Below are positions 5,964 to 39,402 of a DNA stretch of 64,000 nucleotides, one piece after another. Source of the DNA: Candidatus Dormiibacterota bacterium (lineage in GTDB: Bacteria; Chloroflexota; Dormibacteria; Aeolococcales; Aeolococcaceae); assembly GCA_963709585.1 (NCBI GenBank), contig CAVPXI010000013.1, forward strand, positions 96,001-160,000. Reading direction: 5' to 3'. The position numbers and the translations under genes were made by a program. The notes beneath the pieces were generated by a model. It was not told where the DNA came from. It ran no database searches and saw only the letters and a list, made by a program, of their open reading frames with translations. Every line of letters begins with the position of its first letter. Position 1 is the stretch's first letter.

Positions 5964-6107
5964 GTGCGAATCGATAACTTCTCATTCGGCTCCATCCAGA
6001 TCGACGGCCGGACCTACGCCCACGACGTGATCATCGATCGGGGCCAGATCCGCAAGCGCAGGAAGGGCGCGTCGAAGCGTCACCGCGAGAGCTATGGACA
6101 CACGGTG
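5964..6107 (+). pseudogene. N-terminal fragment of an Mth938-like domain protein
   Basis: 'MRIDNFSFGSIQIDGRTYAHDVII...RRKGASK...YGHT' resembles the Mth938 N-terminus; similarity is lost afterwards. Confidence 0.6.
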
Positions 6108-6244
6108 TCGATGGCGTCCAGTGGGCGCAAAGCTCATTCCCAAACCCGGCTGACCTCGATGTTCTCGAGGCTGCCGCTGCGGCCCCCGATCCGCTCTCCG
6201 TCCTGAAGCAGCGCACAGTAGCGGCGCCGTCTAAGAACCCTGAC

Positions 6245-6502
6245 ATGACGGAGGCCAATCGGCACGCTGCTGCACTCATCAGCATCTGGATATCGCACGG
6301 CGGCTACAGCGGAGAGCTGCAGAAGGCTCTGGACACGGCGATTGGTGGTGATGGTGCAAGAACGGTCGTCCCGGGCCTCGTCAATCTCTGCGCATACCTT
6401 GCCGCGATGGTCGGAACGCTCATAGGCTCGTCACCGTTGTCCCTGATCGGTGGCCTCACCATGGAAGCAGAGCCGCCCGAGGGGCCGGTACCGTCTCCAT
6501 GA
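6245..6502 (+). CDS. Hypothetical protein
   Basis: 85 aa ATG ORF with plausible composition; no recognisable motif. Confidence 0.4.
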   Translation: MTEANRHAAALISIWISHGGYSGELQKALDTAIGGDGARTVVPGLVNLCAYLAAMVGTLIGSSPLSLIGGLTMEAEPPEGPVPSP

Positions 6503-6640
6503 GAGGTGCCAGGGGCTCTCCGCCCACCCACGGCGAACGAATTTCGATCACGCTTGAGGAGCCTGAGTGCGGCGTGATCGGCGGGCGAAGAGAGGGCTTC
6601 GTGCCGAAAGTTCGAATAAGGAGATCTTCCCCCGTGAAAA

Positions 6641-6662
6641 CTGCGGAGCTAGGATTCGAACC
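6641..6662 (-). other. Possible tRNA 3'-end remnant (T-loop to discriminator; Gln-like), att-like
   Basis: Minus strand reads GGTTCGAATCCTAG-CTCCGCA-G; only 22 nt. Confidence 0.35.
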
Positions 6663-6681
6663 GCAGACACACCGGGGGTTT

Positions 6682-6820
6682 GACCGTCTCCAGGCCAAGC
6701 GTGGACGTCTGATGGACGTCTGATGGACGGGGCGGCGGGAGACGGGGGTCTCCCGCGCGCGTACCACCGGCGCGCACGGAGTTGACTTCTCTTATCGGTT
6801 CGGTGCAGCTACGTGAGGGG
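6682..6820 (-). repeat. G-family att-like repeat G1 (decayed tRNA-Gly 3' half plus arms)
   Basis: Three TGGACG at 11-bp period, GCGGGAGAC-GGGG-GTCTCCCGC inverted repeat (6735-6756), TTCTCTTATCGGTTCGGT; aligns with G2-G4. Confidence 0.85.
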
Positions 6821-6883
6821 GTTGTTCTCAGGGCATCGAGCGATGCGGCTGCATTCGCGTTCGGGCGAGCGGGCGTTCCGCGT

Positions 6884-7378
6884 TTAGACGTCGCCGCCGA
6901 CGCTGTTGGTCGTGGTCCGGCGGAAGGTCGCGCGTGATGACGACGGCGACACAAGTGCGATGAAGATGACCGCGTTCACCGTGACGGTCACGATCCCTGG
7001 TATCGGGGTCGTGGCGATCCTGACGAACAGGACTCCGATGGCGATCCACACGACGCAGAAGAGCAGCGCGCTGATGAACATGGTCCGCGTCAGTAGCCAC
7101 CTCGACCCCACGGTCCACAGGCCCCATCCACCCATCGTGGCGATGACGATGCCGACTTCGACGACCCACCCGCCGATCGGGGGGTCGCCCGGAGGGTCGT
7201 TCACGATGCCGGGCAGGCCGCTGCCGCCGCGCAGCACGATCAAGCCGCCCACGACAAGGAGGGTGCCGAGAAGCAGCCACCAGGCACTCTCGATCCCGAG
7301 CAGCAAGCGCGCGATCGCGACGCCGCGAGGAAACGGTGCTGCCCGTGTCCGATCGGTCAACACGCTGTGCTCATCCAT
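6884..7378 (-). CDS. Hypothetical membrane protein (about 4 TM)
   Basis: Four hydrophobic stretches; ATG at 7378. Confidence 0.65.
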   Translation of the reverse strand: MDEHSVLTDRTRAAPFPRGVAIARLLLGIESAWWLLLGTLLVVGGLIVLRGGSGLPGIVNDPPGDPPIGGWVVEVGIVIATMGGWGLWTVGSRWLLTRTMFISALLFCVVWIAIGVLFVRIATTPIPGIVTVTVNAVIFIALVSPSSSRATFRRTTTNSVGGDV

Positions 7379-7543
7379 CGCCTTTGCGTGATCCTGCGCG
7401 CGCGTACAGACCGACAGAGGTATGTGCACGAAATTCACAGGAAACCGTAAGGCAAACGTAACGACCGCGCAAGGTCGCGCCCGCATAGTCCTGCTCAGTG
7501 CTGCTCGGCATCCTGCCAGGCGCCGCCCGTCGGAGGTTCAGCG

Positions 7544-9361
7544 ATGATCGCGTTCGGATACCTGGGTGACGAGTTGCGCCGTCGCTGGGGTCGAACCGTC
7601 GTCACCGCACTTGGTCTGGCCGCCGGGGTTGGTCTCGTCATGGGAATCATCGGCGTGTCCGCGGGGCTGAGCGCGGCACAGAACCAGGCACTGTCGCCGC
7701 TCTCGTCGGTCGGGACCGACATCATCGTCACCAGAACGGTGGGTGCGACGACGACTGCAGCTGCATCACCGAGTCCGTCCCCTGGGGCAACGCAGAGCGG
7801 GGGGACCGGAGGCGGCGGGTTCTTTGGTCCAGGCGCTGGCGGCGGTGGTGGGGGCGGTGGCGGTGCCGGCCTCGGGGGTGCCGGCCTCGGGGGTGCCTCT
7901 TCAACCATCAGCCAGCTCAATGCTGCGGATCAGGCGGCGCTCTTGAACGCAAACTCATCGGTGCTGACCGATCTCGCCAAACTCGGCCCGTCAGGCACGG
8001 CGTTCGTGCACGACTTCTTCGTTCCCGGGACGCTCATTACGTTCCCCCAGGTTGCTGTTCAGGATGTGGCTTCAGTTCCTGGCGTGGAATCCGCCGTACC
8101 CGGACTGTCGCTGCAGGCGATCCATGAGTTGGGAACCGTACCGGCGATCACCGACACGGTGACAACCGGTGGCCAGACGATCACGTCGGTTGAGAAGCCA
8201 GCGCCGCTCACCGCTGCTGAACAGAAGTCGGTGTCCGCCTGCATCCGGGCCGCGGGAGGCTTCACGCGGCCCTCACCGGGAGCCACCCCAAACCCCGGGG
8301 GCGACGGTGGAGGTCGGGGATTCGGTGCGGCCTTTACGAAGTGCCTGCCGGCGCGTTTCCAGCAATACGAAGCCAAGGTGGTGGTGCCGACTTAAACCAT
8401 CACCCGCATCCTCAACCCGCCAACCACGAACACCCAGACCAAGACCTACACCGCAGCGGCAGTGAATCCGACAAACACCACCACGGGGCTGATCACCAGC
8501 GCGCAGGTCGTGTCTGGCAGCTGGTTCTCCTCGACGCCAGCCGATGAGATTCTCGTCAACACCGCCTATGCCTCGAGCAACAGCATCAAGGCCGGTCAGA
8601 CGATGACCATCAACGGTACGGTGTACACGGTCCAAGGGTTGGTGGCCCCGACGCTCACCGGCGACGTGTCGGACCTCTACTTCGATCTGACCACCCTGCA
8701 GTCGCTGTCGACCAACTCGTCGCGGGTCAATGAGGTCCTCGTCAAGGTGTCCAAAGCGAGCGATGTCGATGCAGTTGCCGCAGCGATCAAGGCCAAGCTC
8801 CCCGGAGCGCAGGTGCTCACCGCGAAGTCGCTCGCCAATCAGGTGACCGGTAGTCTGGCCAACGCTCAGACCATCGCGGCCAACCTTGGCGGCGCCTTGG
8901 CGGTGATCATTCTGCTCGCTGCGTTCCTGATCGCTGCCCTGCTCACCACGTCGTCCGTCAGCAAGCGTGTCCGCGAGATTGGCACCCTTCGCGCCATCGG
9001 CTGGCGCAAGGCTCGCGTAGTGCGCCAGATCATGGCCGAGACCGTTGGCATCGGCATCGTCGGGGCCGTGATAGGCGTGCTCGCTGGACTCGCCGTCGCG
9101 GAAGCCGTGAACCTCTTCGGGCCGACGCTGTCCTCAACGACGTCTGGCTTGTCCGTCGGTGCGTCGACGGCCAGCACTCTCTTCCATCAAGCTACGACGG
9201 CGTCGACCAGTCAGTCGCTGCACCTCCAAGCCGTGATCACGATCACGACCGTGCTCCTGGGCGTCGGGTTCGCGCTCCTCGGCGGACTCGTCGCGGGCGC
9301 GCTCGGTGGTTGGCGAGCGGCACGACTGTCGCCTGCGATCGCCTTGCGAGATTTGGGATGA
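7544..9361 (+). CDS. MacB/FtsX-family ABC permease, interrupted by in-frame TAA at 8393-8395 (probably CAA)
   Basis: ORFs 7544..8395 and 8462..9361 share a frame; C-terminal 'RVREIGTLRAIGW' and 'RLSPAIALR' FtsX motifs. Confidence 0.85.
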
Positions 9362-10065
9362 CGACCATGGACGTGGCGACCCCCCTCTACCAGCTCCGAG
9401 GCGTCGAACGCCGCTACCTCAAAGGTGCGGCGGAAGTGGTCGCGCTCCGCGATGTCGACCTCGAAATCACCCGGGGCGAGTTCATCTCCATCGAAGGACC
9501 CTCCGGTTCGGGCAAGAGCACACTCCTCCAGCTCGTCGGGGCGCTCGACACGCCCAGCGCCGGAACAGTGCAATTTGACAACCAAGATCTGTCCAGAGCT
9601 CGGGATCGCGCCTTGACGGACATCCGGGCGACCCGGATTGGCTTCATCTTCCAGCAGTTCAATCTGATTCCCACCTTGAGCGCGGCCGACAACGTCGCCA
9701 TCGCCGTCGACCCGCACGTCTCCAAGACGGACCGCCGCGCTCGAGCCCTGGAGTTGTTGGCATCAGTCGGCCTGGCGCAACGTGCGCATCACCTGCCGTC
9801 GCGCATGTCGGGTGGCGAGCAACAACGCGTCGCTATTGCTCGGGCGCTCGCCAATCGTCCGGAGGTCATCATCGCCGACGAGCCCACGGGAAACCTGGAC
9901 TCCAAGAGCGCCGCCGACGTCATGGAACTGCTGGTTGGGTTGCGATCGGAGACGGGTGTCACCGTGATCGTCGCCACCCACGACGAGGAGGTCGCCAAGC
10001 ATGCCAGCCGTCGCATTCGGATCCGCGATGGCGCTGTCGTATCCGATACAGCCGCGCAGCAATGA
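9358..10065 (+). CDS. LolD/MacB-type ABC ATP-binding protein
   Basis: GPSGSGKST, MSGGEQQRVAIARAL, IIADEPTGNLD. Confidence 0.93.
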   Translation: MTTMDVATPLYQLRGVERRYLKGAAEVVALRDVDLEITRGEFISIEGPSGSGKSTLLQLVGALDTPSAGTVQFDNQDLSRARDRALTDIRATRIGFIFQQFNLIPTLSAADNVAIAVDPHVSKTDRRARALELLASVGLAQRAHHLPSRMSGGEQQRVAIARALANRPEVIIADEPTGNLDSKSAADVMELLVGLRSETGVTVIVATHDEEVAKHASRRIRIRDGAVVSDTAAQQ

Positions 10066-10161
10066 CCACCGGTCGCTGCTAGCCGGCTCGCTCACTACCG
10101 CCCGTACAAGCCGCTCGGGTGGCCGCGCTGGCTCCGCGACTGCGACGGAGGCTCGTGCGCC

Positions 10162-10692
10162 ATGACCGACAGACCGCGCCCGCCGACCGAAGACGAGCGG
10201 TTGGCCTTTGATGCTGCGACGCGGGGGTCTCCCAGGGAGTTCGTCCGCATCTGCCGCCGGGCTGGCAAAGAGCCGGGACGCATGCTCGATAGGTTTGACG
10301 CGACGCCGTGGCGTTGGTTGTACTACTTCTCGCCGTCGGACTTGGTGAGCGACGGGATGCGAACCCTGCCCTACCCACCAGAGATCCGAGCACGACTCGA
10401 CGCGACTCGCAAATATGTCGAGGCCCCAAAATGGCAGCGCATGTTTTGCGTCAGTAGACGTGCCGCCGGTTGCCGCTACGGTCACGCGCCTGCGCGACCA
10501 GGGGGGCGATGCCGTCGCCGACCCGGGACCCGTCTGGCGATGCCAGCACGAGCACGGCAGCAGCGCGTGTGTGCGATGCGGCATCTGGTAACCGTTGCGC
10601 TTCATCCGCGACGTCTGGAGGTACAACCGATGACCGACACGGAGCAGACACTCCTCCTCTGGCCGTATCCGCACGCACCTTGGTTGTGGTAG
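10162..10692 (+). CDS. Hypothetical protein (3' end uncertain)
   Basis: GGAGG RBS before the ATG; first ~95 aa look protein-like, the remainder does not. Confidence 0.35.
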   Translation: MTDRPRPPTEDERLAFDAATRGSPREFVRICRRAGKEPGRMLDRFDATPWRWLYYFSPSDLVSDGMRTLPYPPEIRARLDATRKYVEAPKWQRMFCVSRRAAGCRYGHAPARPGGRCRRRPGTRLAMPARARQQRVCAMRHLVTVALHPRRLEVQPMTDTEQTLLLWPYPHAPWLW

Positions 10693-10819
10693 ACGTAGCC
10701 CTCGCTCGGGTGATCGTTGAGCGAAGTCGTATCCGTATGGAACGCTGCAACCTTGGCCACTTGTTTCCGAGTTACCTCTCCCAGGAACGACGTCTGTTAG
10801 CTACCGCACCGAGCGGGGG

Positions 10820-11023
10820 ATGCATGAGCGCATGCCCACAATTACGTTGCTGCTCTGCCCGTGGTGTCACTCCACCCGGCTCGTTCTGCTGACCTACACG
10901 GTGCCAGCCGTGGCAGGCACACGCGATCTGCCCGGGACTCGGCCGAGTGCGAAGTGCGTCGCGTGCGGGCACGCGCTGCTCGCGCGAGACGTCCCCGTGC
11001 GCATGTTGCCGAGGTCAGACTAG
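10820..11023 (+). CDS. Small Zn-ribbon protein (CPxC...RPxAKCxxCG family)
   Basis: CPWCHSTRLVLLTY...RPSAKCVACG; paralogous to 5625 and 50521; exact start uncertain. Confidence 0.68.
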   Translation: MHERMPTITLLLCPWCHSTRLVLLTYTVPAVAGTRDLPGTRPSAKCVACGHALLARDVPVRMLPRSD

Positions 11024-11050
11024 GTTGTGGCGATCGTGTCGGCGTTACCT

Positions 11051-11174
11051 ACCGTCACAGGCGCGACGTGGACGTCTCATGGACGGGGCGGCGGGAGACG
11101 GGGGTCTCCCGCGCAAGTACCACTACGACTGGCGGAGTTGTTTTCTCTTATCGGTTCGGTACCGCTGCGTAAGG
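11051..11174 (-). repeat. G-family att-like repeat G2
   Basis: TGGACGTCTCATGGACGGGGCGGCGGGAGACGGGGGTCTCCCGCGCAAGT...TTCTCTTATCGGTTCGGT. Confidence 0.85.
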
Positions 11175-11410
11175 AGATGGCTCGCAGGAATGGAGCGATG
11201 CGGCTGCAGTATCCTTCGGGCGATCATAACCGAGCCGGACTTTGCTGACCACTTCGCCGACTGGAGGCGTGGCTCGTGAGCTGTCGGTTCATCTGCGCCA
11301 GGTCGGGTGACATAACGCTCGTGTGGGGGAGAGTGGCGAGTTGTTAGTTGAGCAGGTGACCGCCCGCCCATTCGCGCCTGGATGCCAGTGTGGGTCATCC
11401 AGGCGGTGAG

Positions 11411-11992
11411 CTATCGCAGCTCATCGATGCTGTCGAGGAAGCTAAGCGCGCGTTGCTTAAGCAGCTTCGCGGCACCTTCGTCGTAGTCGGGCAGGCTGTT
11501 GTCAGCGAACAGATGGCGGTCGCCGGGATATAGGAACAGTTCCGCGCCCTCTACGGTCTCAACGAGCTCTCGCGCGGCAGGGAGGTCCTCCATCGCCCAC
11601 TCGTCGGCCTCCATCATGTGGATCTGGAGCGGAACTCCCGGCGGCCACGAGCCGCCGAACTCGGAGGCCGGGAAGGCAGCGCTAAACAGCAAGCATCCTT
11701 TCGCGCCGGGACGCATCTGGGCGAGCATCTGCGCTCCCATCACCCCGAGCGAGAAGCCGGCATAGACGAGCTCGTTCGGCAAGCTCTTAGCGGCGAGTTG
11801 ACACCGCTCTAGGATCGTGTCGAAGCCGACCTGCTTGGCGTAGTCAACGCCCTCGTCGAGCGTAGCGAACGTCTTGCCCTCGTAGAGGTCCGGGGAGTGA
11901 ACCGTGTGCCCGGCTGCGCGGAACTCGTCGGCGAACGCAAGGAATCCGGGTGTCTCTCCCTGCGCGTGGTGAAATAGCAATATCTCGGCCAT
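11411..11992 (-). CDS. Dienelactone hydrolase family (alpha/beta hydrolase)
   Basis: LLFHHAQG, GFSLG nucleophile elbow, YPGDRHLF. Confidence 0.88.
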   Translation of the reverse strand: MAEILLFHHAQGETPGFLAFADEFRAAGHTVHSPDLYEGKTFATLDEGVDYAKQVGFDTILERCQLAAKSLPNELVYAGFSLGVMGAQMLAQMRPGAKGCLLFSAAFPASEFGGSWPPGVPLQIHMMEADEWAMEDLPAARELVETVEGAELFLYPGDRHLFADNSLPDYDEGAAKLLKQRALSFLDSIDELR

Positions 11993-12323
11993 CACGGGAT
12001 TTTCTACCACACCAGAGCTACCAGACCTTGACGCACCCGTCATCCACGGTCAGAGCAATCTGGACCACACTGGCGTAGCACCTTGTTTCTTGAGCGTTCG
12101 ACGCGATCGAAGCAAACCGGGCTCGAGCCGCTCTCGCCGCCGCGGCTTGACAAAAGGTGGAAGCCTCGCGAGACTCCGGCCGCGGAGCGGAGCTACGAGT
12201 TTGGCGGTAGTGTCGCCGTCCGTTGACACCGGCGAAGGCGAAGACCACGCTATGGCCCCATCATCCGACCGTCGCTGTCAGATCGGGGATGGGCGACAAC
12301 GGCACGGTCCGTAGACTCATACC

Positions 12324-12911
12324 GTGTCCATTCAGGTGCGCCCGGCGACTCCGGATCTGTGGAGCGACCTTGTCACGGTGTTCGGTCACCGCGGTGACGA
12401 TCCTTCGTGGTGCTGGTGTCGCCTATTCCTTCGTCCGGCAGCCCGCGAATCTGCAGCATCGGAACCGCCACCCAACAATCGCGACGCGCTGCGGAAGGAG
12501 ATCACCGATGCCGCCATACCGCCAGGGCTCCTCGCTTATGTCGACGATCAGCCGGTCGGATGGACAAGAGTTGGTCCTCGATCAAGTTTCGCTGGCGTTG
12601 GCGGCAACACAGCATTGGCAAGAGTGCTCGCGGAGGATCCAGGAGTTTGGTGGGTGACTTGCTTTGCGGTCGACAGCCGCTACCGGCGATGCGGGGTCGG
12701 GTCAACGCTACTCAGGGCGGCGGTCGAGTTCGCCCGTGAGCACGGTGCGACAGCGGTCGAGGGTCATCCGGTCGATGTGGCTGCCCTGCGCGCTGCTCGG
12801 GTCGGAGGGTCCGCCATCTACACAGGAACCGTGGCCATGTTCTCCGCTGCGGGGTTCACCGAGATTGCACGCAGCTACCCCACCCGGCCGGTGATGAGGC
12901 TTCTGGTGTGA
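12324..12911 (+). CDS. GNAT family N-acetyltransferase
   Basis: CWC motif, 'VTCFAVDSRYRRCGVG' acetyl-CoA motif A, 'VEGHP'. Confidence 0.88.
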   Translation: MSIQVRPATPDLWSDLVTVFGHRGDDPSWCWCRLFLRPAARESAASEPPPNNRDALRKEITDAAIPPGLLAYVDDQPVGWTRVGPRSSFAGVGGNTALARVLAEDPGVWWVTCFAVDSRYRRCGVGSTLLRAAVEFAREHGATAVEGHPVDVAALRAARVGGSAIYTGTVAMFSAAGFTEIARSYPTRPVMRLLV

Positions 12912-13608
12912 TGCCCGGACAGTCGGGGAAGACCCTGATCGAACATCAACGCGCCCCGAGAAATATCGGCACACGGTCAAGTCCCCGGTAGTGGTGTGAA
13001 TTCGGTGGAGTTCTCACAGCGTTCGGCCAGCTACGCGACGAGTTCAGACGCTGACAACATTCTCGGGCGAGCACGCGTCGCGTCCTTTGCCGGCATCCCG
13101 CGTGTCGTCTTCGCCGACCGGAGGTTGCTGCGATGGGTCTCACGGCCGACAAGGCTCGTCTGGGTGGCATCGACGCTGCCGCCGCTGAGATTAGCGTCGC
13201 CGACAGCGTGGACCCCTCCTGGACCTACGTACGAGATCCCCGTGGCGCCGTGGGCGTGGTCGCGGATCGCAGTCGTCGCGTGCTCGTGGGACGTGGACGT
13301 GCGCGCCGCTCGCCAGCGAGTGGCTCCACCAGGCTGCTCTCGCAATCCGGGCCGAGCTCTCGGTCGATGTCCTGTTCGACCAGGTCGCACAATATCCACC
13401 TACAGCGAGGCGTACCTCGCAGTCCTGGCCCGACTGGACTGGTAGGACCGGACAAGAATCGACGTCATGGCTCGGCGCAACGGCGTGAAACTGCGCTGGG
13501 AGAGTTCAGCTGCCGCATCTCACGCTGGAACCACACAGCGACCACACTCCATCGCACGTCCAACGAGCGCGCGTCCACGAAACGTGGCTGTCGAGCGCGA
13601 TATTTTGA

Positions 13609-13747
13609 TGAGCGTCTCATGCGCGGCGTGGACGCGTCATGGACGTCTGATGGACGGGAAGTGAGCAAGGGGGTCTCCCGCGCGAATACTACCGACGCGC
13701 GCGGAATTGATTTCTCTTATCGGTTCGGTGCGGCTGCGTAGGGGGGG
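13609..13747 (-). repeat. G-family att-like repeat G3
   Basis: TGGACGCGTCATGGACGTCTGATGGACG...GGGGGTCTCCCGCGCG...TTTCTCTTATCGGTTCGGTGCGGCTGCGTA. Confidence 0.85.
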
Positions 13748-14011
13748 TTCGCCGCCGTGACTTCTTCCGTCACTTCCGAATAGCCACCGACGAGCAGCAT
13801 ATGCACTTCGGTCTCGAGCCAGTTTGAGCAGGAATGTTGATCGAGGGCGCTGTCGGCTGGTGATATTTGTGTGCCGAGGTTGGCATGGGGCTGGCCTACT
13901 CAAACCTGGCAGAGGTACGCGAGCGCCTGGCCACGATCGCCAAGCCAGCGAGGTCATTGACCTCCTTCGGGGTCGGGAATCCGGGGCACCTCCTAGAAGT
14001 ACAGTTGTTCA

Positions 14012-14485
14012 ATGCCGAATCGTACGAAGGGCGCCTCGCTTGGCGTCCTAGTTGTAGCGTTCGGGGCATCGTGCGGCCAGCACGCGCAGCTCCCGACTAC
14101 GACGTCGGCTCCGACGAGCGCACCGGCGCTTACCTCGACGGCGGGAACTTACCCCGCCACCTTCGTCGGCGCCATCCAGGATGGCCTTGACCTCTTCAGT
14201 TCCACCAGCGGCAAGCCCATTCGCCGGCTCACCACCGCAGCCCTAAGTGGAGGTGATCAGTACCCAAGTCTCATCGGTGACGGTGAGATGGTCTATTTCG
14301 TTCGCGCCATATCCTCATGCGGCGAGAGTGGCTCGTCGGGCGGCATATGGGCCGTGTCCGCGGACGGCGGGCCGGCATCCGCCGTTGTCCCAACTCCGCC
14401 ACAGGACGTCGATCTTGTCCCGATCGTCAGTGGCGACGGCGAGATGCTCGCATGGGAGCGAGCGCGCCTCGCGGAGGAGCGCTGA
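14012..14485 (+). CDS. Putative lipoprotein with a TolB/WD40-like repeat fragment, probably truncated
   Basis: Signal peptide ending 'FGASC'; 'YPSLIGDGEMVYF' and 'PIVSGDGEMLAW' repeats. Confidence 0.45.
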   Translation: MPNRTKGASLGVLVVAFGASCGQHAQLPTTTSAPTSAPALTSTAGTYPATFVGAIQDGLDLFSSTSGKPIRRLTTAALSGGDQYPSLIGDGEMVYFVRAISSCGESGSSGGIWAVSADGGPASAVVPTPPQDVDLVPIVSGDGEMLAWERARLAEER

Positions 14486-14849
14486 CACCTCCCTCTCACT
14501 GCGGTCGCTGGTCGGGTCGAGGTCCGGCATCGTGGTCATTCTGACCCTTCCGGGCCCCCCTTCCTGACCATCGATAATGGAAAGGTATCGCTCGTGAGGA
14601 GGCGGAAAGTGGACGGCCTGCCGTGACTAAGAACCTCATCCCCAGCCAAGCCGCGCAGCTCGCCCGTCTCCGGGCGCTCGAGCGGCTGCCCGAGGCTACG
14701 CAACGGCGAGCAAGGCACCCCACACTCTCCGGGCGTGCAGTCGCGACCTCCGCGACCTCGAAGACGTCTATCGCAATGCCGGTGGCCTTCCACTCCTCGA
14801 GGCCTTAATGCGCGATGCGACGACATCGAAGGCGAACCCGATGTTAGAT

Positions 14850-14967
14850 GACCGTCTGAGGCGCGGCGTGGACGCGTCATGGACGTCTCATGGACGGGGC
14901 GACGGGAGACGGGTCTCGAACCCGCAAGTTCAACCTTGGGAAGGTGACGGTCTGTTCTTGGTTCGGG
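14850..14967 (-). repeat. G-family repeat G4 containing a recognisable tRNA-Gly(CCC) 3' half (about 14903-14945)
   Basis: Minus strand: ACC-TTCCCAA-GGTTG-AACTT-GCGGG-TTCGAGA-CCCGT-CTCCCG (anticodon loop CCC, T-arm, acceptor 3' strand); no D-arm or 5' acceptor strand; same TGGACG x3 arm as G1 and G3. Confidence 0.82.
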
Positions 14968-15048
14968 TCACGGACAAAACCCTCGCCCGATAACCGACGC
15001 GTTTGCACAGCTCGAGCTGTTCACGGTTCCGACCTCAGTGGTTATCCT

Positions 15049-15357
15049 CCGCCGAGAGTCGCGCGACTTAGAGTGGTTTTGCAGGAAAGAACATCAATCA
15101 GGGAATGCGTACTAGTCCCTGCAAAGTGACTGATCCCCGCAAGTTGGAATCGGCTGCATTTGAGTGGAAATGGCTTCACTGCAGTGCAATGGGATGCGAA
15201 TCGGGGAGACAGGACTTCGAACCTGCGACCCCTGGTCCCCCAGACTAGTCCTCATTTCCCGATGCGGGCTGAGTTCGATTTAGAGTGGTTTTGTGGGGAA
15301 TTGGTTGGAATGACGACTAGAGCGCGCGTTATGGATTTCGTTGGAATCGCGTGGACA
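15049..15357 (-). repeat. P-family att-like repeat P1: arm B + tRNA-Pro(GGG) 3' half (15201-15248) + right arm
   Basis: Family core reverse-complements to CTGGT-CTGGGGG-ACCAG-GGGTC-GCAGG-TTCGAGT-CCTGT-CTCCCCG-A; this copy has one extra T and CTAGT in the anticodon stem. Confidence 0.93.
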
Positions 15358-15393
15358 TGATGCGGGTACTCAGCGCGCAGCGGACCACCTTTC

Positions 15394-15792
15394 TCAGCCC
15401 CTCATCAGCACTTCAGAGTCGGCAACGGAGGTGACGTCAACGCCGCCATGCACGCCGAGCGCGAGGAGGTCGGCGTCGCCGGTGACAAGAGCATCGGCCG
15501 ATCCGGTTATGGCTATCGCAAGGATCTGATCGTCATCGGGATCCCGACAGACGCGCGGAACCTCAATCGGCGTCACCACATCGGCCATGGCCTCGAGCTC
15601 CGCTCGCACCGCGACAGCCCGATCGCTCGCCCAGCCACAGGTCTCGACGAGCACGGCCTCCAGCTCACGGAGGATCGCGGGACCGATGATCAGGGTGTGA
15701 TCACCACGGAGGACGTCGTCGAGGAGACGTCGCGGGCGTCCACCAAAGTGGAGCGCCGACACCAGCACATTGGTGTCGAGAACGACCCGCAC
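15394..15792 (-). CDS. PIN-domain (PIN_3/VapC-like) toxin, copy 1
   Basis: MRVVLDTNVLVSA...CRDPDDDQILAIA...LVTGDADLL. Confidence 0.92.
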   Translation of the reverse strand: MRVVLDTNVLVSALHFGGRPRRLLDDVLRGDHTLIIGPAILRELEAVLVETCGWASDRAVAVRAELEAMADVVTPIEVPRVCRDPDDDQILAIAITGSADALVTGDADLLALGVHGGVDVTSVADSEVLMRG

Positions 15793-16053
15793 TCAGCGTG
15801 TTGGTTTGCGGCGAGAGCGGCTGCGTCGCGATTTCACCGCAGCTACGACGCTATCTTCAGTCAGGGCACCAGCAGCCGCTCGGTCTTCCCCATACGCAAA
15901 GAGCTGATCCCATCGCTTGCGTCGCTCCGCGTACTGGCGGAACGCTTCTCGCAAAAGTTCGCTGCGCGTCCGGCCCTCCTGGTGCGCCAAGCGGTCGACC
16001 TCGACCGCGAGCTCTGGCGGGAGCGAGATGGTCACTGTCCCGGTCGTGCGCAT
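15793..16053 (-). CDS. Ribbon-helix-helix (CopG) antitoxin, copy 1
   Basis: VTISLPPELAVEVDRLAHQEGRTRSELLREAF; directly upstream of the PIN gene. Confidence 0.9.
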   Translation of the reverse strand: MRTTGTVTISLPPELAVEVDRLAHQEGRTRSELLREAFRQYAERRKRWDQLFAYGEDRAAAGALTEDSVVAAVKSRRSRSRRKPTR

Positions 16054-16186
16054 GAACAGGACGATAACACGAAGTCTTACCCGATAGGACCGCCGAACGG
16101 ATCGGGCTCACAGTGAACTCGGGCAACCATAGATGCGCCAATGGTGACATTGGCCTGCCGGAGGTCAATTTGCCGAGGACCGGAAG

Positions 16187-16432
16187 CGATCTTCGGTTTC
16201 TCGGCCCGAAACGAAGAAGAGCGTTCTCGCTCCGATCAGGGCCTCGCGCATAGCGGCGGTGTCCGCATACGAGGGGTGCGGCGACCGCGATCGCCCCCGC
16301 CATGGGCGGCGCCGTCCCAACGCTGCGGACGATCAACCGCTGGGCGACGCCGCGGTCCGCGAGGCGTCGTGCCACCCGTCCGCCAAGGGCACCGGTGGCA
16401 CCGGTGATTGCGAGGTCTGGCAGCGTCAGATT
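16187..16432 (-). pseudogene. N-terminal part of an NmrA-like NAD(P)-binding SDR (inverted relative to the rest of the gene)
   Basis: Minus strand 'LAITGATGALGGRVARRL...' Rossmann motif, continuing after a frameshift to 'LFFVSGRETEDR'. Confidence 0.7.
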
Positions 16433-16479
16433 GACTCCATTCCGAGCGGTGTAAGTATCCCGCCGAACCCCACCGACCG

Positions 16480-16770
16480 CGGTGGCACCACTACTCGGCG
16501 ATCGAGGCGGCCCTCGGCGCCGGCGTGGAGCGGATCGTCTACGTCTCTTTTCTCGGCGCCGCACCGGATGCGACGTTCACGCTAGCGCGGCAGCACTACC
16601 TCACAGAGGAGCGGATCCGAGCTGCGGGAATCCGGTACACCTTCCTGCGATCCAGCCTTTACGCCGACTTCGTACCGTTCATGACCGGAGATGATTTGGT
16701 GATGCGCGGTCCCGCCGGGACGGGTAAAGTCGGCTGGATATGCCGCGATGACATCGCTGACGTGGCAGCT
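16480..16770 (+). pseudogene. Middle part of the same NmrA-like SDR, ending just before repeat P2
   Basis: 'HYSAIEAALGAGVERIVYVSFLGAAPDATFTLARQHYLTEERIR...RDDIADVAA'. Confidence 0.72.
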
Positions 16771-16787
16771 CGGACGAGCTCGATGAA

Positions 16788-17270
16788 AGCTGTAAGCGCT
16801 ATGTAGGCGATTGACTGCCACAATCCGATCCATGAGCAGCGGCATCCGGCCTCAACCGTGGAGATTGATGCCTTTTGCAGGAAAAGTACTTATTCGCGTT
16901 TAGAGCACTACACCACGTGGGCGCGCAAGCGCCCAAACGCACTGCGCAACCTCTCGTTGCGAACTCAAGTCGGGCGATTGTCGGGGAGACAGGACTCGAA
17001 CCTGCGACCCCTGGTCCCCCAGACTAGTCCTCATTTCCCGATGAGCGCTGAGTTCGATTCAGACTGGTTTTGCCGGGAATTGGTTGGAATGACGACTAGC
17101 GCAGTTGCGATGGAATCCATTGGATTCCCGTCAACACGCACCCACGGTGCTGGACATTACTTCCCTCCCTCACCCCTCTGGACTTTGGGCATTCTGACGG
17201 CCGTCGGGCGCGTCGATCATCTGAAGCCCGTGGATCTGCTGACAGGGCGCTTGTGTGCCGGAGATCGCCT
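16788..17270 (-). repeat. P-family repeat P2: arm A + tRNA-Pro 3' half (16981-17027) + extended right arm
   Basis: Arm A starts CTGTAAGCGCTATGTA; core TCGGGGAGACAGGACTCGAACCTGCGACCCCTGGTCCCCCAGAC; right arm TTGGTTGGAATGACGACTAG. Confidence 0.93.
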
Positions 17271-17403
17271 CACTCGGTTTAGCATCCGCCTCAGGGCTGA
17301 CGCTCAGGCTTGGATCTCTCCCTCCATGTGGGATGCTGGCGCGGTGACCGGATGGGCCGCGCTCCACCAGATCATCGGGATGGCCGGAGCGAGCTCGCCT
17401 CTG

Positions 17404-19701
17404 TCAGAGGCTCGAGGAGATCCAGCCTGCGATCTGTGCACGTGAGTTGAAGCCAAGCTTGTTGAGGATGTGACCAACGTGGGTGGCGACCGTCCGTTCG
17501 GAAATGAATAGCCGGGCTGCGATCTGCTTGTTGCTGAGACCTTCCGCGACCAAGGCCGCGACCTCAGCTTCACGCTTCGCGAGGGGTCCGGAGTCCGCGC
17601 CGGAGAACGAAGCGGCCTCGCGCTGCTCGGATTCGCCGAGCGCCAGCCGCACCGCCGCGTGGCGGTCCAGGCGTTGCCCCGCCTCAAGCTCGGCCTCAAA
17701 TTTCGCTGCCCCGAGGGCTCGCATGGCCAATTCCCTGGCCTCGGTCTGGTATGGCGCATGCGGTCCAATAACCTTTGCGCCGGCGCCGGCACCGATGGTC
17801 TGCGCCGCCCCGAGCAGCCGGGCTGCGAGGCGCGGCTGGCCGGAGGTCGCGGCGAGCCAACTCATCGCAGCCAGAACGTAAAACTCGGCGATCCGGTCGT
17901 CGAACTGCCGCGCGACCCGCAACGCCTCGGCGGCACCCGCGTGTGCTTCGTCAAGGTCGCCCTTCGTGATGGCAATCGCACCGACATTGCGGAGCATCGA
18001 TGCCAGGTAAAAGAGGTCGCCAGCGTCGCGACTCAGGAGCATGCCCGCCGATGATGTCGCTGCGGCGGCGTCCATGTCATTTGCGAAGAACGCATGGACA
18101 GCTCGCGCCTGCACGAGCTCGATGGTCGCGGCATAGTCGCCGACAACAGCAGTGATCGCTTCGGCCTCATCCAGAAGGTCGCCGGCACCTGTGGGATTGC
18201 CGATCTGGTTCTCCGCGTTGGCGGCGACCGAGAGTGCCTGCGCCAGTTCCGCCGGCTGCCGGGTTTCCCGAGCCGTTGCGATGGCGCGAGCGAGCCATGG
18301 CCTGGCGGCTGCAGGGTCGGCCTGCACCACACTCAGCCAGCCACGAAGGACGAGAGCGCGCACCTGCGTGCGCGGAGACGCCTCCCCTGATGCAAACAGG
18401 AGATCCAGCCAGCGAATGCTCTCCGTGGTTCCGTGGGTGATCCAGTAGTACCGCAACGAGGCCGCTACATCGAGCCCTCGGCCGGAGTCTCGGTGCGAAA
18501 CGCAGTGCTGGAGTACCGCTCGAATGTTGTCGATTTCGAGCTCCACCCAGGCGAGCCAATCACGGAGCTGGTACCGGCCCTCGGCCTCGGTCGACAGACA
18601 CGTCTTCCAGTAATAGTCGACGCAACGCTCCGATAGTTCGCCGTCCTCATGTTCGTCGCGCAACTTGAGCGTGGCGTACTCGCGCATGGTTTCGTGAAGT
18701 CGATAACAGTCACGGCCCCCGAAGTCTTCCTTCATGAGCAGCGATTTCTCGACCAGTGATGACAGCAAGTCCAACGTGTCGGTTGCGGCCAGCTCGCCGT
18801 CGGTGCACACCGATTCGACGTCGTCGAGCGTGAATCGGGTGGCGAAAACGGAGAGTCGCCGCAAGACGTGCCGTTCACGCGCCGTCAGCAGGTCGTAGCT
18901 CCAGTCGATGGTCATCCGGAGCGTTTGATGTCGCGGCAGCGCGGCGCGGCTCCCTCCGGTGAGGAGGGCGAAGCGATCACGCAGACGCTCGAGGATCTGC
19001 TCCACGCTGAGGACCCGGGTTCTGACCGCCGCGAGCTCAATCGCCAGCGGCAGGCCATCGAGGCGCCGGCACACGGCAACCACAGCTGCCTGGTTCACAT
19101 CGGTGAGGACGAACGTGCCGGACGCCGCGGCTGCCCGCTCGGTGAACAGGACGACGGCTTCGTTCTCTCGCACGTGGGCGAGCGGTTCGGTTCCATCGTC
19201 GCGAGGCAGCTGGAGTGGCGTGACGGGCACCACGTGTTCGCCCGCCACCTGGAGCGGCTCCCGGCTGGTGGCGATCACGCGGATGTTCGGAGCGGAGCGA
19301 AGGGCCTCAGCGATGAGCTGAGCCGCCGCATCGAGAACGTGCTCGCAGTTGTCGAACACCAGCAGCAACGCTTTGTTCCGCCAGAAGGACCTCAGGATCT
19401 GCAGCGGCTCCACGCCGGCTTGGTCACGGAGGTCAACGGCCGCAAGCACGGCGCTGGGCACAAGGGCGGCATCGCGCACCTCGGCGAGTTCGACCAGCCA
19501 GGCGCCGTCGCTGAATCCGCGTGAGAGGTCGTCTGCAGCCCGCAATGCGAGCCGGGTCTTCCCCACTCCTCCTGGCCCGACGAGGCTGACGAGCCGGGCG
19601 GCCGCGAGTTTCTGCCTGATCTCGGCGAGCTCGCGGCGGCGGCCCACGAAGCTCGTGGTCTCGGCGGGCAGATTGCCCGAACGGTGACGTGGTCTCGCCA
19701 T
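17404..19701 (-). CDS. STAND (NB-ARC-like ATPase)-TPR-LuxR HTH transcriptional regulator
   Basis: [31 protein letters not shown]; C-terminal '[30 protein letters not shown]'. Confidence 0.93.
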
Positions 19702-24342: not shown

Positions 24343-24417
24343 TCAGTGACGACTTGCTTACGGCAGCGCTTGGCTCGCCGACACGTGCGCTCGTCCCTGA
24401 CAAGTCAGAGGAACCGC

Positions 24418-24447
24418 GATGTCCATTTCTCGATGTTCCCGTTCGTC
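24418..24447 (+). promoter_or_regulatory. Putative ECF42-type promoter (TGTC(C)A...CGTC)
   Basis: GATGTCCATTTC...CCCGTTCGTC, conserved in the second operon copy (61519-61547, minus). Confidence 0.5.
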
Positions 24448-24493
24448 TTAGGACTGAAGACCAACCGAACCGCCACTCACAAGGAGAGTCGCC

Positions 24494-24886
24494 ATGTCGT
24501 CGAATCAGGAAGCCACCGCCGTTGAGGTCGCTCGGGCTCACGTTGCCGCGTGGGGCAAGCACGACTACGAGGTCGCGCGCGCCGCGCTTGCAGCCGATGT
24601 CCACGTTTCGGTCTCGAGCGTCGATCCCGAGGCACCGAAGGTCGACACCACGGGGGTCCAGGACTACATGCAAGGTCTGATGCAGTTCGGTCATGCCGTG
24701 TTGCCGGGCACGACCACGGTGAACTCCGGGGTCGGCGATGAGACGCGGGCGCTGTTACACGTGACCTCGCGCGTGAAGTTCGGGCCAGATGCGCCAGAGA
24801 TGACGCTCCGGGGAGCGCGCCTCTATCGACTTGACGAGGATCAGAAGATCATCGACGAGCAGGTGGTGTTTTTCGTCACGCTGTAA
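24494..24886 (+). CDS. SnoaL/NTF2-like protein, copy 1
   Basis: 'VARAHVAAWGKHDYEVARAALAADV'; AAGGAG RBS; duplicated at 61080..61472. Confidence 0.85.
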   Translation: MSSNQEATAVEVARAHVAAWGKHDYEVARAALAADVHVSVSSVDPEAPKVDTTGVQDYMQGLMQFGHAVLPGTTTVNSGVGDETRALLHVTSRVKFGPDAPEMTLRGARLYRLDEDQKIIDEQVVFFVTL

Positions 24887-24975
24887 TCACGCGGCGGTAG
24901 CCGGGGGCCTCTTGAGGCCTCCGGTCGCTCGCGGTTGTTTGGCAGCAGCCAGCGAACAACTTGAAGGAGGACCCG

Positions 24976-25317
24976 ATGCGATATGCGATGTTGGTCTACG
25001 TCGACGAGAGGACAGACAGGAGCGAGGAGGCTGTCGAGAGCGAATACGCCGCGTTCATGGCGTTCCAGGACGAGATGGAAGCCCGTGGAGTTCTGGTCGC
25101 ACGCGAGCGTCTGCGCGAGGCGACGCTCTCGACGACGGTGAGGGTTCGAGACGACAGGCTCGTGGTCGCCGACGGTCCTTTTGCCGAGACCAAGGAGCAG
25201 ATCGCCGGCTTTTACGTCATCGAGGTCGCGGATCTCGACGAGGCGATCGAGATCGCTTCCCAGAATCCGGGCGCCCGCTCCGGCACGATCGAGGTCCGAC
25301 CAGTGTGGCAGCTCTAG
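24976..25317 (+). CDS. YciI/DGPF family protein, copy 1
   Basis: DGPFAETKEQIAGFY and IEVRP motifs; GGAGG RBS. Confidence 0.92.
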   Translation: MRYAMLVYVDERTDRSEEAVESEYAAFMAFQDEMEARGVLVARERLREATLSTTVRVRDDRLVVADGPFAETKEQIAGFYVIEVADLDEAIEIASQNPGARSGTIEVRPVWQL

Positions 25318-26562
25318 CCGATGCGCAGGCGGCGGTCGACGAGGCCTTCCGGGCCAACTGGGGTCGCGTCGTCGCCTACCTGATCCACGTTACTGGCGAT
25401 TGGGACCTGGCCGAGGAGTGCGCCCAGGATGCGTTCGAGCGGGCTATCGCTCGCTGGCCACGCGATGGGATTCCATCGAGTTCCTGCGGCCTGGTTGAAA
25501 ACGACTGCGCGAAATCGTGCACTGGACCGGATGCGGCGAGACACGGTGGGCGAAGCCAAGCTCAGGGAGGTTGCTGTGACGGGACCCGCAGCACGTCACG
25601 ACGACGACAACGACAGCGGGATTGACGACGATCGGCTTCGGTTGATGTTCACATGCTGTCACCCAGCGCTCCCGGTCGAGGCTCAGGTGGCGCTGACGCT
25701 TCGCACACTCGCGGGTTTGACGACACCCGAGATAGCACGCGCCTTCCTGCTCCCTCAGGAGACGATGGCGAAGCGGTTGACGCGCGCTAAGCGCAAGATT
25801 GTCGAGGCACGCATTCCATATCGCGTGCCGGATGCGCGCCATCTGCAGGAGCGGCTGCGCGCGGTGCTGGCAGTGATCTACGCGCTTTTCAACGAGGGCT
25901 ACGGCGCGAGCACCGGCGACGAGCTGATTCGCAAGGAACTCTGCTCGGAGGCGATCCGTCTGGGACGGTTGCTGGCGGAGCTTATGCCCGATGAGCCAGA
26001 GGCCCTTGGGTTGCTTAGCCTCCTGCTCCTTCAGGACTCGAGGCGCCAGGCACGCATCGACGGCGAGGGCGAGTTGGTGACGCTGGCGGACCAAGATCGC
26101 GCGCTCTGGGATCGAGCCGGGATCGACGAGGCGTGCATGCTCCTCGATCGAGCCATGCGGCATCGACGACCGGGGCCGTACCAGTTGCAGGCCGCGGTCG
26201 CAGCCTGCCATGCCCAGGCTCGGACCTCCGACGAGACGGACTGGCGGGAGATCGTGGTCCTCTATGACCGGCTGAGCGAGATTGCACCGACGCCGGTTGT
26301 GCTGCTCAACCGCGCCGTGGCTGTGGCGATGGCCGACGGGCCGGCGGTGGGACTCGCGCTGCTCGTCGAGCTGGAACAAGCGGAAGTCCTGTCCGGTTAC
26401 TACCTGCTGCCCGCGACGCGTGCCGATTTGCTCAGACGACTGACGCGCCACGCTGAGGCGCAGACGGCATATCGCGAAGCGCTTGCGCTGGCGCCGACCG
26501 ACGCCGAGAAGCGGTTTCTTCTTCGGCGCCTATCTGAGCTAGCCCCGCCGGGCGACCGATGA
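25305..26562 (+). CDS. ECF42-type RNA polymerase sigma factor with C-terminal TPR, copy 1; apparent extra base at 25478-25483
   Basis: 'DLAEECAQDAF', 'DDRLRLMFTCCHPAL', 'GPYQLQAA'; removing one T from GAGTTC restores 'DGIPSSPAAWL'. Confidence 0.88.
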
Positions 26563-26575
26563 CGGGGCCGGTTTG

Positions 26576-34880: not shown

Positions 34881-34912
34881 CGACCTCATTCCCCAGGTGA
34901 CGAGGACGAGGT

Positions 34913-35336
34913 ATGACAGAGGTCAGGATCGCACAGAGAACCGAGCGTGTTGTGGTGGGAGTCGATACCCATGCTGACCTTCACGTTGCCGCAGCGCTCG
35001 ACCCGCTTGGGCGCATGCTCGGCCGTCTCGAGGTCGGGACGACCACGCGTGGGTACGCGCAATTGCTCAAGCGGGCGCACACGTTCAGTCCGACAACAAC
35101 ATTTGGTATCGAGGGAACTGGCGCTTACGGCGCTGGCCTGGCTCGTTTCCTCGTCGACGCCGGCTGCGAGGTTATCGAGATCAATCGGCCGGATCGTCGC
35201 GCCCGCCGCGGACATGGCAAGTCGGATCCCATCGACGCCGAGGCAGCAGCGCGATCGGTTGCTCGCTGGTGGACCGCTCTGCATCGCCAAGCGTGACCAC
35301 GACCGGGTCGGCATGATCCGCACGCTCCGGGTCTGA
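34913..35336 (+). pseudogene. IS110 family transposase, N-terminal DEDD domain only
   Basis: 'VVGVDTH', 'GIEGTGAYG', 'GKSDPIDA'; C-terminal domain absent. Confidence 0.88.
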
Positions 35337-38658: not shown

Positions 38659-38967
38659 CCGCCGAGGGTCGCGCGACTTAGAGTGGTTTTGCAGGAAAGA
38701 ACATCAATCAGGGAATGAGGACTAGTCCCTGACAAAGTGGCTGATCCCCGCAAGTTGGAATCGGCTGCAATTGCGTGCCAACGGATGCACTGCAGTGCAA
38801 TGGGCTGCGAATCGGGGAGACAGGACTCGAACCTGCGACCCCTGGTCCCCCAGACTAGTCCTTATTTCCCGCCGAGTGCTGAGTTCGATTTAGACTGCTT
38901 TCGTCGGGAAATGGTTGGAATGACGACTAGAGTGCGCGTTTTGGATTTCGTTGGACTCGCGTGGACA
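38659..38967 (-). repeat. P-family repeat P5: arm B + tRNA-Pro 3' half (38812-38858) + right arm
   Basis: Collinear with P1 on both sides of the core. Confidence 0.93.
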
Positions 38968-39003
38968 TGATGCGGGTACTAGGCACGCAGCGGTCCACCT
39001 TTC

Positions 39004-39402
39004 TCAGCCCCTCGCCAGCACCTCGAAGTCGGCCACGGAGCTGATGTTGACGCTGCCATGCGCGCCGAGCGCGAGTAGGTCCGCGTCCCCGGTCACAAGA
39101 GCATCGGCCGATCCAGTGATGGCTATCGCAAGGATCTGATCGTCGTCAGGATCCCGGCAGACGCGTGGAACCTCAATCGGCGTCACCACCTCGGCAATCG
39201 CCTCGAGCTCGGCTCGCACCGCTGCAGCCCGATCGCTCGCCCAGCCACAAGTCTCCACGAGCACGGCCTCGAGCTCGCCGAGGATCGCGGGACCCATGAT
39301 CAGCGTGTGGTCACCACGGAGGACGTCGTCGAGGAGACGGCGCGGGCGTCCGCCAAAGTGGAGCGCCGACACCAGGACATTGGTGTCGAGGACGACGCGC
39401 AC
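39004..39402 (-). CDS. PIN-domain toxin, copy 2
   Basis: Near-identical protein to 15394..15792. Confidence 0.92.
   Translation of the reverse strand: MRVVLDTNVLVSALHFGGRPRRLLDDVLRGDHTLIMGPAILGELEAVLVETCGWASDRAAAVRAELEAIAEVVTPIEVPRVCRDPDDDQILAIAITGSADALVTGDADLLALGAHGSVNISSVADFEVLARG

Follow-up and report, generated by a model that had tools for sequence, protein, structure and literature searches.

Repeats G1-G4 of a Candidatus Dormiibacterota contig as probable junctions of stacked, integrase-less cassettes directed at the tRNA-Gly(CCC) 3' end

The window analysed here is a stretch of 64,000 nucleotides from the genome of a Candidatus Dormiibacterota bacterium (GenBank assembly GCA_963709585.1, contig CAVPXI010000013.1), corresponding to C13:96001-160000 of a contig of 212 kb; the genome of 3.52 Mb, in 24 contigs, is 88.8% complete. 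It contains four co-oriented repeats, G1-G4, which we regard, with a probability of roughly 0.8, as the junctions of a tandem stack of small integrative cassettes that carry no integrase and target the 3' end of tRNA-Gly(CCC). Throughout, G1-G9 denote the repeat sites, G008, G010, G015, G017 and G022 the genomes of relatives, L-numbers fetched loci or contigs, and X1-X5 runs.

The G junctions and the block at which they switch

A repeat search returned G1-G4 as a four-copy direct repeat family (at 6692, 11048, 13619 and 14859; 77 nt, 61-77% identity to G1), with a three-copy extension covering G1-G3 (78 nt, 77-86%), and a MAFFT alignment of the four sites (A1) has a mean column identity of 67%. 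The phased arm pattern TGGACGNNTNATGGACG occurs seven times in the window, always on the + strand and always inside G1-G4, against 0.03 occurrences expected from shuffles. A junction, 160-210 nt in total, opens with a left arm in which two to three TGGACG units are phased at 11 bp; the core comes next, and a conserved right arm of about 75-130 nt closes it. In G1 (6641..6877, + strand; nhmmer C13:102681-102877) three units (6702, 6713, 6724) precede the perfect palindrome GCGGGAGAC-GGGG-GTCTCCCGC at 6735-6756, and the right arm extends to about 6877; G2 (11015..11236, + strand) has two units (11069-11085), the same perfect palindrome at 11091-11112 and a long right arm to 11236; and G3 (13600..13796, + strand) has three units (13629-13656), a core at about 13661-13684 with a mutated left half, and a right arm. 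G4 (14842..14975, + strand) combines a G-type left arm of three units (14869-14896) with a tRNA-Gly(CCC) 3' fragment on the minus strand at 14903-14945 and the right flank of another element; the fragment covers tRNA positions 28-70 and is 95.3% identical over 43 nt to C4:124641-124683 (reference tRNA, C4:124614-124685). No whole tRNA was found in the window by ARAGORN. To the left of both G1 (window 6641-6700) and G6 (C13:175672-175730) there is a common hairpin, CTGCGG-N14-CCGCAG, holding a T-loop-like GGATTCGAACC, which may be the remnant of yet another tRNA-derived site.

The family comprises nine copies, the four of the window and five more on the same contig, all on the + strand, and neither BLAST nor an nhmmer profile found any elsewhere in the genome. 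They form two clusters, one at 6.7-14.9 kb of the window and one at C13:165.7-185.1 kb, and both clusters lie within intervals of a larger array of tRNA-Pro(GGG) junctions. The junction of that array closest to G4 here, P1 (15201..15358, + strand), is a neighbour that does not belong to the G system.

A preliminary description of this DNA, made from its letters, had proposed four co-oriented repeats, an inverted repeat with a 4-nt spacer in G1 and G2, and the 3' half of a tRNA-Gly(CCC) on the minus strand of G4, and the figures above bear out all three, the repeats lying well beyond chance. It had also placed G4 some 80 bp from the arm of P1, in agreement with a P1 homology that starts at 15032-15049, about 65-85 bp past G4, and had recognised a second array, of tRNA-Gly(CCC) specificity, nested in or abutting the tRNA-Pro array in the same orientation; the G array is indeed co-oriented with the tRNA-Pro array and lies inside one of its intervals, bracketed by P junctions at C13:90529 and C13:111201. 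A dispersed distribution in both orientations, as in repetitive extragenic palindromes (REP) or miniature inverted-repeat transposable elements (MITE), was looked for as the pattern that would speak against this proposal; such a repeat is ruled out, nine of nine copies being on one strand of one contig. One suggestion has to be corrected, namely that G1-G3 had drifted away from the tRNA sequence. The core is palindromic in 21 of the 27 profile hits obtained from this genome and its relatives, of the tRNA type in five (two of them real tRNA genes) and a half-mutated palindrome in one, G3; the palindromic core is found again in 41 distinct pattern-selected sites, metagenomes included, and it keeps a 13-nt block identical to the tRNA 3' end. 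The palindrome is the conserved consensus of the family and not a product of tRNA decay. The core has perfect arms of 8-9 bp around CGGGGG/GGGG, with only 8 of 11 matches at the outer arm positions.

The way in which arms and core are combined differs from site to site. In three loci (L011 of G008, L022 and L038) the TGGACG arm comes immediately behind an intact tRNA-Gly(CCC), which is the arrangement of an attL, and at other sites the core with its right arm has unique DNA on its left, immediately next to a tRNA-Gly-like 3' terminus, as in an attR. Hybrids occur as well: G015, G017 and several metagenome contigs have the palindromic core and the G right arm behind a different left flank, the sequence that follows this genome's own tRNA-Gly, i.e., the end of a different islet of 2.7 kb. 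Assigned by eye, the left flanks of the 41 distinct sites comprise 20 TGGACG arms, 5 of the other-islet type, 14 unique ones, 1 native flank of this species and 1 truncated. In an alignment of such sites (A2) left arms, two core types and several right flanks mix freely and the switch always falls at GCGGGAGACGGGG, which places the strand exchange in these 13 nt, common to the sites and the tRNA 3' end. G4, the exception among the four, is a hybrid of this kind too: its G left arm is joined to a spare tRNA-Gly 3' fragment that was there beforehand, belongs to a different type of element and has a foreign flank on its right; the fragment at 14903-14945 probably served as a secondary target of the G stack.

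Comparison between strains, which the preliminary description had proposed as a check, gave breakpoints at the G sites. First, the metagenome contig L051 matches the DNA past the tRNA-Gly islet of this genome at 95.4% over its initial 715 nt, and the two are collinear until ...GTCAGCGG(G/C)AGACGGGG, after which they diverge: this genome continues with a tRNA-type repeat of another islet, L051 with a core and right arm of the G kind that hardly differ from their counterparts in G6 and G9; we read L051 as an attR-type junction at the orthologous site of a strain with flanks about 95% identical. Second, at C13:66433 this genome has an unoccupied secondary site, a tRNA-Gly fragment, where G022 carries the TGGACG arm. 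Third, the cassette between G1 and G2 (cassette 1, 6878..11014; duplicate copy at C13:180570-185112, 92.7% by BLAST) recurs between G8 and G9; the two copies are 93% identical over the stretch that begins with the core of the leading site and ends with the left arm of the next, while outside these limits the outer left arms agree at 72%, the outer right arms at 80-88% and the sequence beyond at random. An identity bounded at the cores is what is expected of a unit produced by exchange at the cores. Furthermore, the junction of G4 with the tRNA-Pro array is shared by G015.

The 3' end of the tRNA-Gly gene is an insertion hotspot: between it and the conserved downstream gene lie 64-128 nt in five congener loci, 1.4-3.4 kb in four, and 2.7 kb in this genome. 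As in tRNA-targeting integrative islands of the tyrosine-recombinase type, the insertion lies at the 3' part of the tRNA, the tRNA is spared, and the exchanged segment is repeated at the far end; unlike in those islands, no integrase is encoded beside an att site on C13 or on the G contigs of G015, G017 and G022. At least nine small cassettes (1-10 kb) with unrelated cargo are present in this genome, and in the G loci of relatives none of the cargo of the window cassettes was found, the junctions alone being matched.

These observations are consistent with the following scheme. Read in the tRNA sense, a junction would be P arm, core and P' arm, that is, the attP which the ends of neighbouring cassettes would form on excision. 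In the orientation of the window, the left arm (the GATGACCGTCT... stretch and two to three TGGACG units in 11-bp phase) would be the P' end of the left-hand cassette, and the right arm (...GTACCAC...TTGATTTCTCTTATCGGTTCGG...GCTGCGT...) the P end of the right-hand one. Strand exchange takes place within GCGGGAGACGGGG, which represents the 3' strands of the acceptor and T stems, so that the tRNA remains intact after insertion. The core contributed by the cassette would complete the 13-nt block to a 9-4-9 palindrome, a dif-like inverted repeat suited, we infer, to the dimer of a simple tyrosine recombinase, presumably acting in trans, and the TGGACG units may bind an accessory or arm-binding factor. 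New cassettes would enter at the tRNA-proximal site, pushing older ones outward, and could still be mobile. In this window, the stack would have entered not the tRNA-Gly gene but the spare tRNA-Gly 3' fragment of G4, within an interval of the tRNA-Pro(GGG) array. Of this scheme, the logic of the junctions, the region of exchange, the modular nature of the cargo and the want of a linked recombinase are borne out by the data above.

The system is narrowly distributed. Of 42 genomes of the genus, 10 contain the G core with the right arm; the G1 site in full (window 6682-6830) was found in none of 16 genomes of the neighbouring family, and the triple TGGACG arm in 2 of 401 genomes of a very broad, GTDB-based sample of the phylum, both of which belong to this genus. 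The core pattern was found in 9 genome loci and 23 metagenome loci and gave no match among the viral contigs of IMG/VR, and thus no phage or free attP was found there. Just past the G right arm, seven of the fetched loci (L024, L028, L047, L053, L030, L041 and L052) have a T-arm-like GGTTCGA(A/C)TCC on the + strand, and in some of them GCGGGAG, a second copy of the left core half, comes next.

Read data were taken from Logan short-read contigs of four runs that cover the region; runs X1-X5, from soil samples that contain this population, include 46-92% of the sampled words. The contigs break inside the cores of G1-G3 and bridge G4 alone, so the deposited assembly is what the cassette order across G1-G3 depends on. 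In the X1 and X2 contigs G2 has a third 11-bp unit, TGGACGTCTCA, at window 11068, and the copy number of the arm thus varies in the population. Two further joints were too weak to count: 11078 to 6712 (X5; one contig of depth 3.4, continuing into a foreign right arm), which could be an assembly chimera at the repeat, and 7942 to 11813 (side 21, X3).

Search for an enzyme and competing readings

The only integrase that tblastn detected at G-bearing loci is an Xer-like gene lying 90-200 nt upstream of tRNA-Gly in L011, L016 and L038. Its product, of 311 aa, is a two-domain Xer-type recombinase that scores under all NCBIfam cut-offs; of 42 genus genomes, 16 have an orthologue (61-73% identity), and in 10 of the 11 fetched loci it stands directly upstream of an intact tRNA-Gly(CCC). 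In G008 (L011:10218-11580) the gene is found between a decayed tRNA-Gly(CCC) 5' fragment (positions 4-39) and the intact tRNA gene, and here it has the appearance of a small element in its own right, recombining close to the anticodon arm and supplying the 5' part of the tRNA, the reverse of the usual orientation. Because of this appearance and because it does not co-occur with G across the genus, being linked to it in three loci, the gene was set aside as the G enzyme and kept as a minority candidate. The IS110 elements of the window were considered as a linked factor too and rejected, as none lies near any G site.

Several points weigh against the interpretation of G1-G4 as junctions of a tandem cassette stack. 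No recombinase could be tied to the G sites. The genome has 11 matches to PF00589, none of them on C13; the G contigs of G015, G017 and G022 have none either; serine recombinases (PF00239, PF07508) are absent from C13 and from the same three sets of contigs; no recombinase was detected inside the cassettes by tblastn with 10 integrases against all fetched loci; and the Xer-like gene is co-present with G in two genus genomes, without co-occurrence. The distal end of the window array is G1, an attP-type site and not an attR, and the profile found no distal attR to the left of it, so that the array is incomplete or rearranged. The damaged core of G3 together with the decayed look of cassette 3 means that at least part of the array may be a fossil. 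No circular form or clean excision joint was seen in the run contigs. Finally, all genomes of the set are metagenome-assembled, with completeness of 61-92%.

A bolder version of the same idea, which we consider possible yet doubtful, sees in the G sites a lineage-specific mode of gene capture in Dormibacterota. Recombinase-less cassettes, each with a complete attP of about 160-210 bp made up of the phased TGGACG arm, a dif-like palindromic core sharing 13 nt with tRNA-Gly(CCC) and the right arm, would be shuffled in trans by a chromosomal Xer-like tyrosine recombinase between tRNA-Gly and spare fragments inside other tRNA arrays. If true, this would be a functional analogue of the integron that is built on a tRNA site and able to nest arrays in arrays.

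Less probable again is an integron-like resident platform, in which the chromosomal Xer-like integrase upstream of tRNA-Gly(CCC) captures the recombinase-less G cassettes at the tRNA 3' end as its primary site, arrays elsewhere being secondary. In its favour, integrase, tRNA-Gly and G-type junctions stand together in L011 (G008), L016 (G010, where a G-like attR lies 1.5 kb past the tRNA) and L038, orthologues are present in 16 of 42 genus genomes and beside the tRNA in most fetched loci, as described above, the protein is of the two-domain Xer type, and the G core reads as a dif-like inverted repeat. However, the orthologue is present in 2 of 10 G-positive genus genomes and in 14 of 32 G-negative ones, five loci that bear the gene have an empty site, and the present genome, with nine G sites, offers as best homologue a protein of 33-35% identity. 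In addition, the G008 copy seems to belong to a distinct element whose site of recombination is near the anticodon arm and not at the 3' end.

It is quite unlikely, in our view, that the G sites are dead att scars, arranged, the G1-G2/G8-G9 pair included, by homologous recombination and segmental duplication with no site-specific activity in the lineage. The lack of a linked recombinase, the damaged G3 core, a third cassette with no recognisable gene, an in-frame stop in the MacB-like gene of the window and an array that has no proper attR end would all suit such scars. They would leave unexplained, however, why the core is intact in 21 of 27 profile hits beside unrelated cargo, in several species and in metagenomes, why the high identity of the duplicate ends at cores and not at arbitrary points, and why the orthologous tRNA-Gly site of a close relative is filled differently, the change falling exactly on the 13-nt block; moreover, homologous exchange between 150-nt repeats of 80-90% identity would not yield the series of attL, attR and hybrids.

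That the repeat is a structured RNA gene or signal (a tRNA-like small RNA, a terminator or a regulatory element) accompanying accessory operons is hardly credible: although the core is a strong GC hairpin and the one consistent element of all folds, T-loop-like GGTTCGA(A/C)TCC follows the right arm in some metagenomic copies, and the L053 copy can be drawn as a cloverleaf-like fold of 94 nt, Rfam at E up to 1 has no match at the G sites (window 6000-17500 and six G loci), the RNA folds of nine copies have z-scores of -1.8 to +0.5 and no common structure, no T run follows the core hairpin, and an RNA gene does not account for the swapping of left flanks (tRNA, native flank or arm) at the 13-nt block. 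A known RNA family was rejected as a candidate, since Rfam returned from the same sequences only true tRNAs and one sub-threshold tRNA match at P2, as was a structured RNA in the right arm on the + strand, the nine folds sharing no structure there.

Relation to known systems

The G array, as a stack of cassettes at a tRNA-derived site, is a variant of what is known as tandem accretion, of cis-mobilizable elements (CIMEs), of ssrA islands and of tycheposon-like stacking. What sets it apart is the remodelled palindromic core with only 13 nt of tRNA identity, the phased arm, the complete want of a recombinase over many small cassettes, and the nesting at a secondary tRNA-Gly fragment within a tRNA-Pro array of about 200 kb. 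Dormibacterota are grouped with Chloroflexota, and the lineage is related to the Dehalococcoides hosts of the ssrA islands.

In Dehalococcoides, according to McMurdie et al. 2011 (PMC3146451), multiple ssrA islands follow a single small-RNA gene in tandem on its downstream side, every one of them delimited by a direct repeat of the 3' end of the gene, with extra conserved sequence next to the repeat; the target is the transfer-messenger RNA (tmRNA), the repeat is 20 bp long, 16 islands encode a serine recombinase, and 15 islands without an integration module were proposed to be cis-mobilizable. The G cassettes resemble this account in the tandem arrangement at the 3' end of a small-RNA gene, the conserved sequence next to the repeat and the presence of members lacking an integration module, and they differ from it in the target, tRNA-Gly(CCC), in 13 nt placed in a palindromic core, in the long arms, in the absence of any island recombinase and in a secondary site inside the array of another tRNA.

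CIMEs retain attL and attR and lack integration and transfer genes (Pavlovic 2004, Bellanger 2011, via PMC5704250), and they are described there as decayed integrative and conjugative elements (ICEs) or integrative mobilizable elements (IMEs) adjoining a functional helper (PMC5704250). The G cassettes likewise have an att site on both sides and no integration or transfer genes; unlike CIMEs, there are at least nine of them (1-10 kb), with unrelated cargo and with both arms conserved at every junction. An adjacent element with a cognate integrase, as expected for CIMEs, was not found on the 212-kb contig with PF00589, PF00239 and PF07508.

In the islands of Prochlorococcus that hold tycheposons, successive integration at the island tRNA is reported to push older elements outward, leaving behind partial tRNAs and degenerate remnants, and tycheposons are presented as carriers of adaptive accessory genes, defined by the possession of a tyrosine recombinase and of replication modules (Hackl et al., bioRxiv 10.1101/2020.12.28.424599). 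Outward pushing at a tRNA and accessory cargo are features that the G array seems to have in common with them. In contrast to tycheposons as so presented, however, the G cassettes hold no recombinase, and their core has been remodelled to a palindrome with phased arms instead of plain tRNA fragments; plain partial tRNAs are seen at G4 and related secondary sites only.

A further parallel is provided by the dif modules of Acinetobacter plasmids (PMC13141974, PMC6449649), recombinase-less modules that are bounded by short inverted-repeat sites. Such modules and the G cassettes are alike in lacking a recombinase, in having inverted-repeat sites on which a simple tyrosine recombinase of the host may act and in being stacked at one site, whereas the dif modules use alternating XerC/XerD-oriented plasmid sites of 28 bp and the G sites are co-oriented, 160-210 nt long, linked to a tRNA and chromosomal. 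Xer-dependent elements are also known among the integrative mobile elements exploiting Xer (IMEX), such as the CTX phage, and in cer and psi accessory sequences lie on one side of the Xer core, a parallel to the TGGACG arm.

Chromosomal integrons and clusters of attC sites lacking integron integrases (CALINs) are recombinase-less cassette arrays between conserved sites, some of them with no integrase nearby. The G array has neither a long imperfect attC hairpin nor genes confined to one strand, and the linked Xer-like integrase scores 18.8 bits against the integron integrase model TIGR02249, the cut-off of which is 265. A single-stranded hairpin of the attC kind was rejected, as DNA folds pair consistently in the 22-nt core alone (z-scores -0.8 to -3.1). 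The term "cassette system" used in the preliminary description therefore holds only if it is taken to mean islets without an integrase that have att sites at their flanks and are stacked through site-specific recombination, and fails in the integron sense, the features of which were tested and are missing.

A full-text literature search with "genomic island" brought up no paper on the mobile elements of Dormibacter, as judged by titles and the beginnings of abstracts. Dormibacterota are an uncultured lineage of soil and permafrost, and the locus offers a view of the uptake and reshuffling of accessory genes (exporters, hydrolases, acetyltransferases, redox enzymes, regulators) with no plasmid, phage or integrase genes nearby; a large share of the 212-kb contig is built of such cassettes. 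Practically, the junction profile or the 27-nt core pattern can serve as a marker of flexible regions and cassette borders in metagenomes. Should the enzyme be found, the pairing of a 13-nt target derived from a tRNA with a compact palindromic core that has a phased accessory arm would constitute a new, defined system of site-specific recombination, and the G system would bear on the question, raised by integrons and CIMEs, of how recombinase-less cassettes originate and persist.

Cargo of the window cassettes and the surrounding arrays

Gene assignments rest on Pfam matches, which agree with the cargo listed in the preliminary description (a MacB-type exporter, a hydrolase with a GNAT protein, and fragments). 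Cassette 1 contains an open reading frame (ORF) of unknown function (6884-7438, - strand), a MacB-like permease (FtsX/MacB_PCD; 7544-9361, + strand) with an in-frame stop at 8393-8395, and an ABC ATPase (9358-10065, + strand). Cassette 2 (11237..13599, between G2 and G3) carries a dienelactone hydrolase (11411-12010, - strand) and a GNAT acetyltransferase (12324-12911, + strand), and cassette 3 (13797..14841), with short ORFs only and no Pfam family match, is probably decayed. Genes thus lie on both strands, within and between cassettes. The stop in the MacB-like gene is a strain variant or an assembly error, for the X1 and X2 contigs have C for T at 8393, which gives a sense codon, and the paralogue at C13:181319-183220 is open over 634 aa. 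A segment of 51-69 nt at window 12975-13025, possibly the terminus of a small mobile element, recurs on C14, C7 and C4 (87-92%) and is a point where many of the read contigs stop or part ways.

The surrounding tRNA-Pro array consists of 16 co-oriented junctions with 41-53 nt of tRNA-Pro(GGG) at 93-100% identity (C13:11768-211583), spans nearly the whole contig and ends at an intact tRNA-Pro (C13:211509); no integrase was found on C13. Eight of its junctions fall in the window, at 15201, 16981, 26575, 33435, 38812, 49370, 52956 and 59026, and a second tRNA-Pro array, of four or five junctions, lies beside another tRNA-Pro (C14:17964-71703). Like G4, the tRNA-Gly(CCC) 3' fragments at C13:15338 and C13:66433 are within 0-150 nt of P junctions, and spare tRNA-Gly sites seem to travel with cassettes of the tRNA-Pro type.

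Two duplications were noted within the tRNA-Pro array: a block of SnoaL, YCII and sigma factor/DUF6596 genes (window 24388-26563 and 59402-61577; 93%, inverted), and a PIN/ribbon-helix-helix toxin-antitoxin pair together with its P junction (window 15049-16100 and 38659-39710; 90.7%, direct). The same array holds an intact transposase gene of the IS110 family (51123-52388) and a fragment of another (34901-35293). Elsewhere, at C14:158838-179862, five 3' fragments of tRNA-Ser(GGA), 23-58 nt long and in one orientation, lie about 55-75 kb from the tRNA-Ser gene and represent a third tRNA-fragment array in the genome, and single distal fragments were seen of the tRNAs for Gln, Leu, Lys, Phe, Thr, Gly(GCC/TCC) and Pro(TGG).

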